NCBI RefSeq assembly: GCF_013122565.1
Contig: NZ_CP053258.1
DNA length: 64,000 nucleotides
Reading direction: 5' to 3' (one strand)
Source of the DNA: Escherichia coli
GTDB taxonomy: Bacteria; Pseudomonadota; Gammaproteobacteria; Enterobacterales; Enterobacteriaceae
The notes beneath the pieces are model-generated. The model did no database searches and was not told the DNA's origin. It worked only from the letters and a program-made list of their open reading frames with translations. Shown here piece after piece: positions 50,914 through 55,731 of this stretch (position 1 is the stretch's first letter; each line of letters opens with the position of its first letter). Both the position numbers and the translations under genes were made by a program.

Positions 50914-52482
50914 TTAGCGTGCCGGCTGAGTAGTCGTGGAAGACTGCTCAAAGTGATAGCGACCGGTTTTCAGGCTGCTTGGGCCGAGGCGTGCAAACTT
51001 GAACATTAAGAACAATTCTGCCACCAGGAACAGGGTATACAGGCCGCAAATCAGCACCATTGAGAAGATGAGATCGCCTGCGGTCAGTGACGAGTTCGCC
51101 ACAGCTGTCGGCAGCACTTCACCGATAGCCCACGGTTGGCGGCCATATTCAGCCACGAACCAGCCCGCTTCTACAGCAATCCACGGCAGCGGAATACCGT
51201 ACAGCGCGGCGCGCAGCAGCCATTTTTTCTCGCCAATGCGGTTGCGGATGACACTCCAGAAAGAGAGCGCGATGATTGCCAGCAGCAGGAAGCCACACGC
51301 CACCATGATACGGAACGCGAAGTACAGCGGCGCTACACGCGGAATGGAGTCTTTGGTTGCCTGTTGAATCTGAGCTTCAGTCGCATCAGCCACGTTTGGC
51401 GTATAGCGTTTCAGCAGCAGACCGTAACCGAGGTCTTTCTTCATGCTATTGAACTGGTCACGAACCGCCTGGTCGGTAGAACCAGAACGCAGTTGTTCGA
51501 GCAGAGAGTAAGCCTTCATCCCGTTACGAATGCGTTCTTCATGCTGCACCATCAGTTCTTTCAGGCCGATAACTGGAGTATCCACGGAACGCGTTGCAAT
51601 GATGCCCAGCGCGTAAGGGATCTGGATCGCAAATTTGTTCGTCTCCTCTTCCTGATCAGGAATGCCGAACAGAGTAAAGGCAGCAGGCGCAGGTTGCGTT
51701 TCCCACTCGGCTTCAATAGCAGCCAGTTTGGTTTTCTGCACGTCGCCCATTTCGTAACCAGATTCATCACCCAGAACAATAACAGACAGAACGGCAGCCA
51801 TACCGAAGCTGGCAGCGATAGCAAAGGAGCGTTTAGCGAAGGCGAAGTCACGACCTTTCAGCATATACCATGCGCTGATACCGAGGATGAACATCGCGCC
51901 AGTCACATAACCAGACGCTACAGTGTGAACGAATTTCACCTGAGCAACCGGGTTAAGCACCAGCTCGGAGAAGCTCACCATCTCCATACGCATAGTTTCA
52001 AAGTTGAAATCGGACGCGATTGGGTTTTGCATCCAGCCGTTCGCAACCAGAATCCACAGTGCGGACAGGTTTGAACCGAGCGCCACCAGCCAGGTGACAC
52101 ACATATGCTGAACTTTACCCAGACGATCCCAACCGAAGAAGAACAGACCTACAAAGGTGGATTCGAGGAAGAAGGCCATCAGACCTTCGATTGCCAGCGG
52201 CGCACCGAAGATATCCCCTACATAGTGGGAATAGTAAGACCAGTTAGTCCCGAACTGGAACTCCATAGTCAGACCGGTAGCCACACCCAGAGCGAAGTTG
52301 ATACCAAACAACTTGCCCCAGAACTTGGTCATATCTTTATAAATCTGTTTGCCGGAAAGGACGTAGACCGTTTCCATAATGGCCAGCAGGAACGCCATAC
52401 CGAGCGTCAGTGGCACAAAAAGGAAGTGGTACATCGCGGTCAAGGCAAACTGTAAGCGCGACAGTTCGACTATATCTAACAT
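50914..52482 (-). CDS. cydA: Cytochrome bd-I ubiquinol oxidase subunit I CydA, 522 aa
   Basis: ORF 50914..52485, start at second Met ([20 protein letters not shown]). Confidence 0.96.
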
Positions 52483-52819
52483 CATGACTCCTTGCTCATC
52501 GCATGAAGACTCCGAGAGTGAACCCCGTTAGAAAGGGTCACACGCATGCCCCAATACAAAATTATTTGCTCGCCTCTATCGTTGCCATTTCATCAAAAGA
52601 GGAAAAGACAATGATAAAAAAGTTGCAAATATGTTAATGAATAAACCAAATTGATCCCGTAATTATATTACGCCGCAAAATCCTTACAATAAACAGGTTT
52701 TTATTGAGCAAATTTGCATTTTTCGACAGTGATCAATTTATAGCGAAATTGTCACGATCTCACCAATTTGATCTACGACAATTTATCGTGTTTTGCAGAT
52801 TTTTTTCAAGAATTAAAAA

Positions 52820-52833
52820 TTGATTTATATCAA
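52820..52833. promoter_or_regulatory. FNR-consensus palindrome in the cydAB upstream region
   Basis: ttgatttatatcaa = TTGAT-N4-ATCAA exactly, about 340 nt upstream of cydA; the cydAB promoter is known to be FNR/ArcA controlled. Confidence 0.7.
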
Positions 52834-53287
52834 AACTAACCAAATATGTTAATTATGTATAAACCATAGATCATTAGTGATTTTATTGTTAATTTATTGT
52901 GAAATATTTATGCAACACAATTATTACAATGAAAAGGTATAGATAAAAAACCAGTGTTGTATTTAACAGAACCGCCTTATCCACTTTTTATAATACCAAT
53001 TGATTAGAGTAGCCAATTTGTTGCTATTTTACATAACATATTTTTATCAAAGTTAATTGATTGTTGCCTTTATGAGCACCGACCGTAAGCCCGTTATGTT
53101 ATTGTTTCATTGGTAATAATCACTTAAATGTATCGATGGAACAGGTATGACTTAGCGGGAGTGATTGTTTCTGAGTGAACAGGGGCCACTTTTGCCTGAT
53201 AAATGAAAAATGAGCGATTTTTGCAAGTTAGTTTTTCTATAGCCGTGTACGCTCAGCGCCTCGCTTGATTACAATGAGGTTGCTGCT

Positions 53288-54232
53288 ATGAGTCCTGATA
53301 ATATCGGTTCGGCTGTCAATCGCTTCTCAGGTTGGCCATCTAATGATCCTCTAAAAACAGATAAAGAATCAACGACATCACCCGTGACAGTGCAGGTAAT
53401 AAAGATGATTGCCGCCATCCTTGACCCACATCGGATAGTCGTTGGAATCGATACACTTTATACAACGCAGCGCGAAACATTTACCTCAGAGAGTCAACAG
53501 CTCATTGAATCAGCATTGCAAACACTTCATGTGATGAATTTAAATAACCTGGAAACAAATCGCGATGAAGAAGGTCACTATCTGGCTTTTGAATATAACG
53601 TTGACACCTCTGACAGAATAACCGTTTCTGCTTACAATGAAAAAAATCCTGGCTGCTATGGCCAATGTCTTTTAATACAGGATGACGAAACAGACTTATT
53701 CAACCTGATAAAAATTAAAATTTTTGAAGCCAGGCATAATTATGTCGCTCAATTGATGAGCGATCCAGAATTTATGTTCAAATTCAGTTATAGCGCTCAA
53801 CAAAATAGATTAGAACCTCATCTTCTGGTTCCCGCTTATTTCCCTCTAAAAACAAACGAACCGGTTACGCAAGAGGATGTACTGTTACTTTATCGTTTCT
53901 TTAAAATGAATGATGATTTTAACAAATTAACATCAGATGAATACATGAGTATCCTGACACCTCTGATGAAGTGTGAGCGTAGCGTCCACGACAACAACAG
54001 GTATGTGACGGGCAAAGATACCCTTCTTCTGGACTATCCTCCTTCTGGTAACCAGATACATTTCCATGTTTTCCCTGACGAATCAGCAACACTAGTCCTT
54101 TATTTTTCAAACAATGACCTTGAATATTTCGTCTTTGAAAGAGATATTCCGAGCCAGTATCGCTTTTTCAAAATGTTTACCAATCTGGCACTGGTTATAG
54201 ATCAGTTAACCGAAGCCCATAAAATACTTTAA
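53288..54232 (+). CDS. Hypothetical protein (314 aa), AT-rich, no family recognised
   Basis: ORF track; GAGG RBS 7-10 nt upstream; soluble, Ser/Pro/Asn-rich N-terminus. Confidence 0.55.
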   Translation: MSPDNIGSAVNRFSGWPSNDPLKTDKESTTSPVTVQVIKMIAAILDPHRIVVGIDTLYTTQRETFTSESQQLIESALQTLHVMNLNNLETNRDEEGHYLAFEYNVDTSDRITVSAYNEKNPGCYGQCLLIQDDETDLFNLIKIKIFEARHNYVAQLMSDPEFMFKFSYSAQQNRLEPHLLVPAYFPLKTNEPVTQEDVLLLYRFFKMNDDFNKLTSDEYMSILTPLMKCERSVHDNNRYVTGKDTLLLDYPPSGNQIHFHVFPDESATLVLYFSNNDLEYFVFERDIPSQYRFFKMFTNLALVIDQLTEAHKIL

Positions 54233-54312
54233 TTTTCTATATATCCCTATGGCAAATATTGCTAAACAATGCCTGGGGATTAATTTTTATTACTCACGGA
54301 AAGATTTAAATA

Positions 54313-54735
54313 ATGATATCATCTCAGATCTCTTTCAGTACTCTTCCTGTCAATGCAACATACGCTTCAGAGACAACAGTTGACACACAAAAATTCTCTG
54401 ACATCCTCTACTCAGCGGGGTGTTCCCTAAAGGATATGGCTTATCTGAGCAGATGTCTGGCATCAATACACCCGACTATCGCCAAAAACATTTATGAAAC
54501 AGAAAATCTCAGCGATCAAAAATTACTGCATATTGATTGCCGTAGTACAAATGACATCAAGATAAATATCTTTTTTGGTCAGCAACGAGAAGGATTAATT
54601 GAAATTAGTTCTGACACAGTTATTTTTTCGATACTGTCTTCATTGATTGACTCCGCCATTTCTAAATTTCAACATCAAAACCCGGTTAACGGTTCAGTTA
54701 ATCCTGAACTATTGTATGAGGATTATACTGATTAA
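54313..54735 (+). CDS. Hypothetical small acidic protein (140 aa), AT-rich
   Basis: ORF track; 80 nt downstream of the 314-aa ORF on the same strand; Ser-rich N-terminus. Confidence 0.5.
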   Translation: MISSQISFSTLPVNATYASETTVDTQKFSDILYSAGCSLKDMAYLSRCLASIHPTIAKNIYETENLSDQKLLHIDCRSTNDIKINIFFGQQREGLIEISSDTVIFSILSSLIDSAISKFQHQNPVNGSVNPELLYEDYTD

Positions 54736-55281
54736 ATCCACCCTGTCGCGAAAAATGGCCTGCGTTATTGCCAGACGTAATAAAACCTTTGATTAACGTT
54801 ACTCATACTGATAGCACCTTCATGTACCTCTCTTTTTTACGCAAATCAAAAGAGCTAACGAAGGTCATAATTCGCATGAATCATTAACCATTTGTTATTT
54901 TCAACATTACTTTTACATTAAGCAGAAATGAATGGTAGTGAAATTCGACTTAAATTTTATGAAATGCATTTACTTATGGCTAAACCCATATCACTAAAAT
55001 GCAAATTAGAAGTAGATCACAAATATCTCAATACACCAAATCAAGTTAATTTTAAAAATTTAACATTCATGACATTAGTTGACATAACACACTGAATTAA
55101 CATGGAAATTTAAAAACACACTTTAAACAATCATTTCCCGAAAGACATTTTGAAAATAGATCAATTGCAACATTACGGTCAGATAAAGACACTCCTGTGA
55201 TATTAAACCTGTGCCGTTATGAACGGCCATAAATACGACGTGTGTAACTTATTTTACTCTCTGTCTTACAAAGGATTACCC

Positions 55282-55731
55282 ATGAAGAAAGCAACACTTG
55301 TGATTGGCGTTATTGGCGCGGACTGCCATGCAGTAGGCAATAAAGTTCTGGACCGCGTTTTTAGCAACCACGACTTCAGAGTCATTAATCTGGGCGTAAT
55401 GGTCAGCCAGGACGAATATATTGATGCTGCCATTGAAACTGGCGCTGACGCGATTGTCGTCTCCTCTATCTATGGGCATGGCGATATCGACTGTCTGGGC
55501 ATGCGCGAACGCTGCATCGAGCGTGGACTGGGGGACATCCTGCTCTATGTGGGCGGTAACCTGGTGGTAGGAAAACATGACTTCGCTGACGTGGAAAACA
55601 AGTTCAAAGAGATGGGATTTGATCGCGTCTTTGCCCCAAGTCATGACTTAGAAGAGGTTTGTCAGCTGATGGCCCACGATATCAACCAACGTCATGACGT
55701 TGATACTCGCATTCTTGAAGAGGCAATCTGA
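55282..55731 (+). CDS. glmS: Glutamate mutase (methylaspartate mutase) S / sigma subunit, B12-binding, 149 aa
   Basis: ORF 55219..55731 with start at [22 protein letters not shown] (cobalamin-binding DxHxxG-type motif); family assignment from recognised conservation. Confidence 0.85.

Follow-up and report, generated by a model that had tools for sequence, protein, structure and literature searches.

Cytochrome bd-I lets E. coli respire in the gut when oxygen is low, and the cydAB promoter is a classical model of combined FNR, ArcA and H-NS control. In the stretch of E. coli DNA analysed here (64,000 nucleotides, hereafter the window), the AT-rich DNA upstream of cydA looks foreign beside K-12, which raises the question of whether the control region of a core operon gives way there to acquired DNA, and whether control of the operon changes with it. 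In our reading, this DNA looks foreign because E. coli holds two old alleles of the whole control region: an Escherichia-type allele, which is also present in E. albertii and lies beside either ORF314 and a methylaspartate cluster or a TPR gene, and a K-12-type allele, which lies beside mngRAB. The interval itself is very probably an ordinary multi-promoter, oxygen-responsive cydAB control region, with the 5′ region of a divergent orphan gene at its far end. The palindrome, the cydAB control region and the neighbouring island are all already known, and since this holds for the FNR site and the island, the finding itself adds little. The modest new point is that this textbook operon has, in E. 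coli, two deeply diverged alleles of its control region, a case of intergenic switching.

The cydA upstream interval and its predicted operators

The gene for cytochrome bd-I subunit I, cydA, occupies 50914–52485 on the minus strand, as given by the list of open reading frames and by the annotated cydA of matching E. coli genomes, and the cydAB pair of the window is 99.0% identical to that of K-12. Its first in-frame ATG is at 52485, while the K-12 annotation uses the second (52482 in the window); all distances are counted from 52485, with an accuracy across genomes of about 3 nt. From there to the open reading frame at 53288, the list leaves a gap of 802 nt (52486–53287) with a GC content of 33.5%, falling to 26.5% in 52600–52999, in agreement with the roughly 800-nt AT-rich non-coding stretch between cydA and the first orphan ORF that had been described for this DNA. 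Open reading frames of at least 20 aa in the gap are short and of the chance type, none of them credible, and no Rfam family matched 52300–53500 at E-values up to 1. Nearest to cydA lies a near-invariant leader (52486–52563, minus strand, −1 to −78) that carries the Shine-Dalgarno sequence and a 2-codon mini-ORF (ATG CGA TGA, 52504–52496, minus strand). It is 99–100% identical to K-12, Citrobacter and E. albertii and 89–96% identical to remoter genera; its predicted RNA fold has no more structure than expected by chance (z = 0.27 for 52486–52563).

A pattern scan found TTGATTTATATCAA at 52820–52833 as the sole exact TTGAT-N4-ATCAA in all 64 kb. When the full window was shuffled, the mean was 0.13 copies and 13 of 100 shuffles had at least one; in dinucleotide shuffles of the 802 nt the mean was 0.004, with the motif present in 0.4% of 2000. 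TTGAT/ATCAA half-sites number 10 in the gap against 4.2 expected (fraction of shuffles reaching 10, 0.011), and the longer AATTGAT/ATCAATT, for which 0.55 copies are expected, is present 5 times, a count reached in none of 2000 shuffles. The preliminary description, which had noted one exact palindrome and several half-site-like repeats, was thus accurate on both, with one exact copy and an excess of half-sites. Read in the direction of cydA, the palindrome is TTGATATAAATCAA and corresponds to the known FNR operator at −53.5 of promoter P1: its K-12 counterpart, TTGATATTTATCAA at 771110–771123, aligns with it base for base. In K-12, cydAB has an FNR ChIP peak with a site at −53.5 (Myers 2013, PMC3688515). 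The arms are unchanged in 13 of 14 aligned Enterobacteriaceae, Pluralibacter having one mismatch; this conservation, together with the alignment to a K-12 site of known position, supports the earlier prediction of an FNR site here.

Promoter P1 itself was located by a consensus scan and by alignment to K-12 (52780–52809, minus strand), with a −35 element TTGAAA at 52809–52804, an 18-nt spacer and a −10 element TAAATT at 52785–52780, in a region that is invariant or nearly so across the 14 aligned Enterobacteriaceae. From the FNR-site distance of −53.5, its start is predicted at about 52773, 288 nt before 52485 and 7 nt past TTGAAA-18-TAAATT. A start near 52773 agrees with what we take to be the P1 start of cydAB. 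Centred at −1.5 of P1, the pattern scan identified a second putative FNR site, TTGTCGTAGATCAA (52768–52781, minus strand), with 2 mismatches, one more than the K-12 sequence at this site (TTGTTCTCGATCAA); its ATCAA arm is invariant across genera and its left arm varies freely. The −53.5 and −1.5 sites are 52 nt apart in the window, as in K-12. A further FNR-like element from the same scan, TTGATCACTGTCGA (52723–52736, minus strand; 2 mismatches), would lie at +43.5 relative to the predicted P1 start and is a candidate only, with a TTGATC arm that is invariant across genera. Two further AATTGATC elements are likewise invariant or nearly so in the alignment of 14 Enterobacteriaceae. The consensus scan also returned a sigma-70-like promoter, TTGTAA-16-TATAAT (52662–52689, minus strand), which matches 10 of 12 consensus positions and whose hexamer region is near-invariant in the same 14 taxa. 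Five promoters have been reported for K-12 cydAB (PMC3037301, PMC3946193), and this one is probably among the downstream promoters P2–P5.

For ArcA, we used a position weight matrix (PWM) built from 112 non-cyd ArcA boxes (Park 2013, Table S3). Upstream of K-12 cydA there are three ArcA ChIP-seq regions, cydA1 being the strongest (Park et al., PMC3798270 supplements), which convert to distances from the ATG of about −600 to −570 (the strongest), −421 to −370 and −155 to −125. The predicted boxes of the window match these regions in position at all three distances. The proximal box, aagttgcaaatatgttaa (52620–52637, plus strand; 17.7 bits), is the counterpart of K-12 cydA3, and its position is kept in K-12 and most other genera sampled. 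The middle cluster (52846–52903, plus strand), the counterpart of cydA2, comprises three boxes of 16.2, 14.7 and 20.6 bits, against 12.8, 10.4 and 12.3 bits in K-12. Two distal boxes at 53033–53067, ataacatatttttatcaa (17.3 bits, in the orientation of cydA) and aagttaattgattgttgc (14.0 bits), form the positional analogue of cydA1.

The distal pair lies where similarity to K-12 has already ended, and one may ask whether it is a product of AT-rich composition, as may be the extra half-sites, with regulation confined to the first ~410 nt and 52893–53287 serving as spacer and ORF314 promoter. ArcA-like matches do arise easily in AT-rich DNA, at about 0.2–0.3 matches of at least 13 bits per 800 nt of shuffled sequence, with an expectation of about 0.26 per shuffle in the scan of the window, and cross-genus BLAST similarity stops at −375 to −415. 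Set against this, none of 300 shuffles reached the observed score in the same 100-nt interval, either for the window or for K-12 (0–4 of 300 in most taxa), and 16 of 20 Enterobacteriaceae have a box of at least 13 bits in the same orientation, that of cydA, centred between −554 and −610, regardless of which cassette lies upstream. The distal block also does not vary from one E. coli type to another or in E. albertii, although the sequence around it does, and of the three ArcA ChIP-seq peaks in K-12 the one at the corresponding box is the strongest. A chance origin of the distal boxes is therefore improbable in our view. It appears that the regulatory architecture extends to about −600 and that the window keeps it past the point where the match to K-12 ends. 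Every operator named here for the window is a prediction made by sequence and position.

Nested boundaries between cydA and the methylaspartate cluster

Where, then, does conserved cydA DNA end? The preliminary description had expected a junction in this interval at which it gives way to acquired DNA. A boundary between cydA upstream DNA conserved across the family and strain-variable DNA is indeed found there, at 52892, and it proves to be one of several nested boundaries rather than the one junction between K-12-like and island DNA. BLAST similarity to K-12 and to other genera reaches its outer limit at 52892–52893 (−407), within the middle ArcA cluster, so that the alignment with K-12 has the FNR site in its known place at −53.5 but covers 52486–52892 only and not the whole interval. 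For either allele, similarity to other genera stops at about −300 to −415. Inside this limit, the identity of 52564–52892 to K-12 is ~71% overall (45–97% per 40-nt bin), but it rises to 94–99% when the comparison is with other E. coli not of the K-12 type, and E. albertii stands at 90%; over the same columns, K-12 is 69–71% identical to non-K-12-type E. coli and E. albertii and 64–73% identical to other genera. Because the window is so much nearer to these relatives than to K-12, it is the K-12 reference allele that is the outlier. On the cydA side, the crossover between the two alleles could not be placed, since the sequence from −78 to about +200 is near-invariant even across genera (Citrobacter differs at 2 positions in the first 200 nt of cydA).

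Further from cydA, E. coli loci of the window type (ORF314/methylaspartate) and of a type with a TPR gene diverge from each other at 53124–53125, about −639, by sequence comparison, the TPR type being alignable as far as 53123 (−638). The locus is thus polymorphic with three types in E. coli, and it has breakpoints in the interval at 52892 when compared with K-12 and at 53124 when compared with the TPR type. Since 52893–53124 is common to TPR-type E. coli and E. albertii and holds the positionally conserved ArcA box, it is probably still cydA regulatory DNA, and our best estimate for the end of that DNA is ~53124. Past this point, 53125–53204 is poorly conserved relative to E. albertii, and 53205–53287 is a conserved 5′ region of ORF314.

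Nor does the interval adjoin the acquired methylaspartate cluster itself. The E. albertii locus has no methylaspartate genes and is alignable across the whole gap and ORF314 up to 54337, where similarity stops inside ORF140, a second AT-rich orphan in the list of open reading frames (54313–54735, plus strand). The first sequence that the window has in common with the methylaspartate clusters of Citrobacter and Pseudescherichia is a conserved element at 55084–55168, upstream of glmS (55282–55731), and by this sequence comparison it is the cydA-side edge of the cluster. Because cluster similarity starts only at ~55084 and E. albertii similarity runs to 54337, the island's own junction lies 1–2 kb outside the interval. 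GC content climbs from 36% to more than 52% at ~55400, which leaves an AT-rich tract of ~2.8 kb (26–39% GC, 52600 to 55400) running from the cydA promoters through ORF314 and ORF140.

Two alleles of the control region in E. coli

The interval forms one end of a gap that differs widely in content. Among the loci listed, sucD is directly upstream of cydA in most Enterobacterales. K-12 has the order sucD-sdhX-mngR-mngA-mngB-cydA, with an mngB-cydA spacer of 846–847 nt; E. coli genomes that match the window have, from cydA to sucD, two hypothetical genes, the methylaspartate (glutamate mutase) cluster and a LysR gene; and the third E. coli type has a frameshifted TPR gene alone. In scattered genera among the loci listed, mngRAB, the methylaspartate cluster or the TPR gene is found in the same slot, oriented as in E. 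coli. The sucD-side breakpoint is the end of sdhX. The sucD-cydA gap is best read as a slot in which whole cassettes are swapped and the cydA control region goes with them, presumably through homologous recombination in the highly conserved flanking DNA. Between cydA and sucD, no integrase or tRNA target is annotated as a mobility signature, and flanking direct repeats are at chance level. We rejected a 24-nt inverted pair flanking ORF314-ORF140 as a mobile-element signature, its 75% complementarity being no better than that of six other chance pairs. As a separate observation, strain AHB10 has a natural IS1 insertion upstream of cydA, at the equivalent of 52957, which separates its promoters from the distal ArcA boxes.

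We surveyed 5426 complete E. coli genomes. The K-12-type distal region (mngRAB) was found in 3182, and in 3044 of these it matches K-12 at 99% identity or more; the window-type distal region (ORF314/methylaspartate), which includes O157:H7, in 1138; and the TPR type, which includes CFT073 and UM146, in 1107. The window-type proximal allele, scored as covering at least 80% of 52564–52892, was found in 2247 genomes, approximately the sum of the ORF314/methylaspartate-type and TPR-type genomes. Measured against the window, 791 of them reach 99% identity or more, 1411 lie at 95–99% and 44 at 90–95%. Overall, 41% of complete E. coli genomes have the window-type allele and 59% the K-12 type, the latter always beside mngRAB.

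The window allele is diverse within E. coli, lies beside two different cassettes and is 90% identical to E. albertii, and this suggests that it has been inherited vertically. With the single E. albertii genome as outgroup, we consider it somewhat more probable than not that the window allele descended vertically within Escherichia and that the K-12 one was imported with mngRAB. The outgroup Escherichia are represented by that one genome; the cross-genus sample lists 80 loci, a set that lacks Salmonella, E. fergusonii, the cryptic clades and Klebsiella pneumoniae. Within it, the search for a donor of the K-12-type allele gave a best match of 73% and no donor.

History might also have run the other way, with the K-12-type region ancestral in E. 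coli and the window type a later arrival from a lineage resembling E. albertii. Two facts fit such a course: most genomes (3182 of 5426) have the K-12 type, and only one genome among the loci listed speaks for the outgroup. Yet 90% identity to E. albertii, roughly what separates the two species across their genomes, is too distant for a recent transfer, and the window type is diverse within E. coli (1411 genomes at 95–99%, 44 at 90–95%, beside two cassettes), as opposed to a K-12-type distal region that is uniform in 3044 of 3182 genomes. The variable block from −135 to −80 points in the same direction, Citrobacter being 67–72% identical to the window type there and only 41–46% identical to K-12. 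We therefore regard the reverse course as unlikely and continue to favour vertical inheritance of the window allele.

Switched intergenic regions, or horizontal regulatory switching, have been described (Oren et al. 2014, cited by Thorpe et al. 2018, PMC5890482). The cydA case is alike in that strains of one species have one or the other of two highly divergent sequences at the same site upstream of a single core operon, and the two alleles fall below the 90% identity used to tell such alleles apart, with 71% over −415 to −80, no alignment beyond, and 2247 against 3182 genomes. It differs from switching in general in that it goes along with replacement of the entire adjoining cassette (which Piggy would class as the “upstream” type) and in that operator positions are kept in both alleles. 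As to the cassette, the glutamate-fermentation cluster (methylaspartate pathway) of O157:H7 was described by Kronen and Berg 2015 (PMC4682846), and the window has the same genes (among them glmS, glmL, glmE and methylaspartate ammonia-lyase) between cydA and sucD, an arrangement of 1138 of the 5426 genomes. In the window the cluster does not adjoin cydA, with two orphan ORFs in a 2.2-kb AT-rich block between them, whereas in Citrobacter and Pseudescherichia it lies beside cydA without the orphan ORFs.

Predicted control of cydAB and the neighbouring orphan gene

From cydA outwards, the region would be organised as the near-invariant 78-nt leader, followed by a promoter/operator module of ~330 nt that is conserved across Enterobacteriaceae and would contain P1 with the FNR sites at −1.5 and −53.5, the further sigma-70-like promoter, and ArcA boxes near −145 and between roughly −360 and −420. 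Beyond it, AT-rich DNA with the distal ArcA box pair would extend to about −640 as a module of its own, and the last ~160 nt would belong to ORF314. H-NS/ArcA anti-repression at cydAB has been described, as cited in PMC3798270, and for the mngB-cydA spacer of K-12 an association with H-NS and several RNA polymerase peaks have been noted (PMC3946193). By analogy with K-12, H-NS would silence the AT-rich region under aerobic conditions, phosphorylated ArcA would relieve this silencing under microaerobic conditions, and once oxygen is gone FNR would repress P1 from the palindrome (−53.5) and the −1.5 site.

In gene and architecture, the K-12 region is the same: the FNR palindrome, P1 hexamers and second FNR site are aligned, the DNA is AT-rich, ArcA boxes lie at three matching distances and the intergenic lengths are similar (802 nt in the window, 846–847 nt in K-12). 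The differences are ~29% divergence from −80 to −415 with nothing alignable beyond, a palindrome spacer of ATAA where K-12 has ATTT, a left arm of TTGTC instead of TTGTT at the −1.5 site, the higher scores of the middle ArcA boxes, and the upstream neighbour, a divergent orphan gene in the window and the 3′ end of mngB with a REP element in K-12. The changed spacer, the extra mismatch at −1.5, the stronger middle ArcA boxes and the longer AT-rich tract could have quantitative effects.

These differences bear on a reading that builds on the preliminary description, namely that island DNA abuts a truncated cydAB region and so changes control of cydAB or couples it to the island. In its favour, the sequence past 52892 is not alignable to K-12, and K-12 has its strongest ArcA ChIP-seq site further out than the corresponding position; in addition, the −1.5 FNR site has one mismatch more than that of K-12, and the ~2.8-kb AT-rich tract could carry an extended H-NS filament. 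Against this reading, 52893–53124 is also found in TPR-type E. coli and in E. albertii, which lack the island, the left arm of the −1.5 site is free to vary among genera, and the methylaspartate cluster starts only ~1.8 kb past the interval. Every operator position is kept, the distal ArcA box included, and so are the P1 hexamers. As far as sequence can tell, there is no sign that acquired DNA alters cydAB control, and we hold such a rewiring to be very improbable. Regulation shared with the neighbouring orphan ORF would be speculative.

The practical consequence is one of caution. K-12 regulatory maps cover an allele that is absent from ~41% of sequenced E. coli, including O157:H7 and CFT073-like strains, and since operator positions are conserved and the sequence is not, transfer of K-12 annotation to those strains by motif or alignment will fail beyond about −400. 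This would be so even though the distal ArcA site appears to be kept. A more far-reaching proposal, which we put forward as doubtful, combines several elements: the K-12 cydAB region is foreign and came with mngRAB, ~41% of E. coli keep the ancestral allele, microaerobic bd-I expression differs between the two, and H-NS and ArcA co-regulate ORF314. Were this true, the FNR/ArcA/H-NS model would have been built on an imported allele, and O157:H7 and B2 strains such as CFT073 would use the ancestral one, which is ~29% diverged, has middle ArcA boxes that are stronger and a −1.5 FNR site that is weaker, and continues into a long AT-rich block of orphan genes.

The gene at the other end of the interval, ORF314 (53288–54232, plus strand), is an AT-rich orphan of 314 aa, confined to Escherichia by the list of open reading frames and homology searches. 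It has no Pfam family, its homologues form 5 near-identical clusters only, a search for distant relatives among 1.84 billion representatives returned none but one marginal match of 38 residues, and its AlphaFold model is poor (pLDDT 50). A consensus scan of the plus strand gave no promoter for it; its promoter presumably lies within 53205–53287, the 5′ region conserved between E. coli and E. albertii, which has a GAGG 8–9 nt before the ATG on the plus strand. ORF314 nonetheless looks like a real gene: it aligns gap-free over 314 columns, at 64% identity.

A recurrent cassette slot between sucD and cydA

The gap between sucD and cydA is a recurrent cassette slot in Enterobacterales. This comparison is based on loci sampled upstream of cydA in that order (L006-L051), among the matches listed. 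At these loci sucD directly adjoins cydA in most genera. Elsewhere the slot is filled: Kluyvera, Enterobacter cloacae and Superficieibacter carry mngRAB there, Citrobacter and Pseudescherichia carry the methylaspartate cluster, and Enterobacter sp. BIGb0383 and Pectobacterium zantedeschiae have a TPR gene.

Two orphan genes and the approach to glmS

In the window, two AT-rich orphan genes with a GC content of 36-39%, ORF314 (53288..54232) and ORF140 (54313..54735), separate the methylaspartate cluster from the control region of cydA. A search of 1.84 billion representatives returned no relatives of ORF314 beyond a few near-identical clusters, which we take to be Escherichia, and no Pfam family was found for this gene. 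Its alignment is gap-free, with 64% identity over 314 columns, its AlphaFold model is poor (pLDDT 50), and the copy in E. albertii is split.

Upstream of glmS, a short element (55084..55168) is 74-84% conserved with Citrobacter and Pseudescherichia, whereas the flanking intergenic DNA is not conserved; this element probably serves the methylaspartate cluster as its promoter or operator. Separately, the ORF314-ORF140 block is enclosed almost exactly by the two arms of a 24-nt inverted repeat (53147..53170 and 55125..55148, 75% complementarity). This arrangement probably arose by chance, because these 2.9 kb hold six further inverted pairs of like quality.

Conserved and variable parts of the cydAB control region

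The proximal leader (52486..52563) and the start of cydA (its first ~200 nt, 52285..52485) are near-invariant between genera, including at synonymous sites. Compared with Citrobacter, the leader is 100% identical, and cydA shows 2 differences in its first 200 coding nt versus 21-43 per 200 nt deeper in the gene. A 2-codon mini-ORF on the minus strand, ATG CGA TGA (52504..52496), lies within the leader and is preceded by GGAG. A fold test of the proximal leader was not significant (z 0.27), and no Rfam match to it was found.

Further upstream lie three AATTGATC/GATCAATT elements (52649..52657, 52728..52738 and 52765..52775), each with a Dam GATC site and invariant in 14/14 Enterobacteriaceae. 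One of the three overlaps the predicted start site of the cydAB promoter P1. No match to a known regulator was found for these elements other than the -1.5 FNR site.

Despite cydAB being ~99% identical to that of several complete E. coli genomes, no complete E. coli genome exceeds 98.5% identity to the distal region of the window (52893..53287); in this segment, the source strain therefore has no close representative among complete genomes. In E. coli AHB10, an IS1 lies ~470 nt upstream of cydA, at the equivalent of window position 52957, and splits the predicted middle ArcA boxes from the predicted distal ones. This insertion offers a natural test for the relevance of the distal module.
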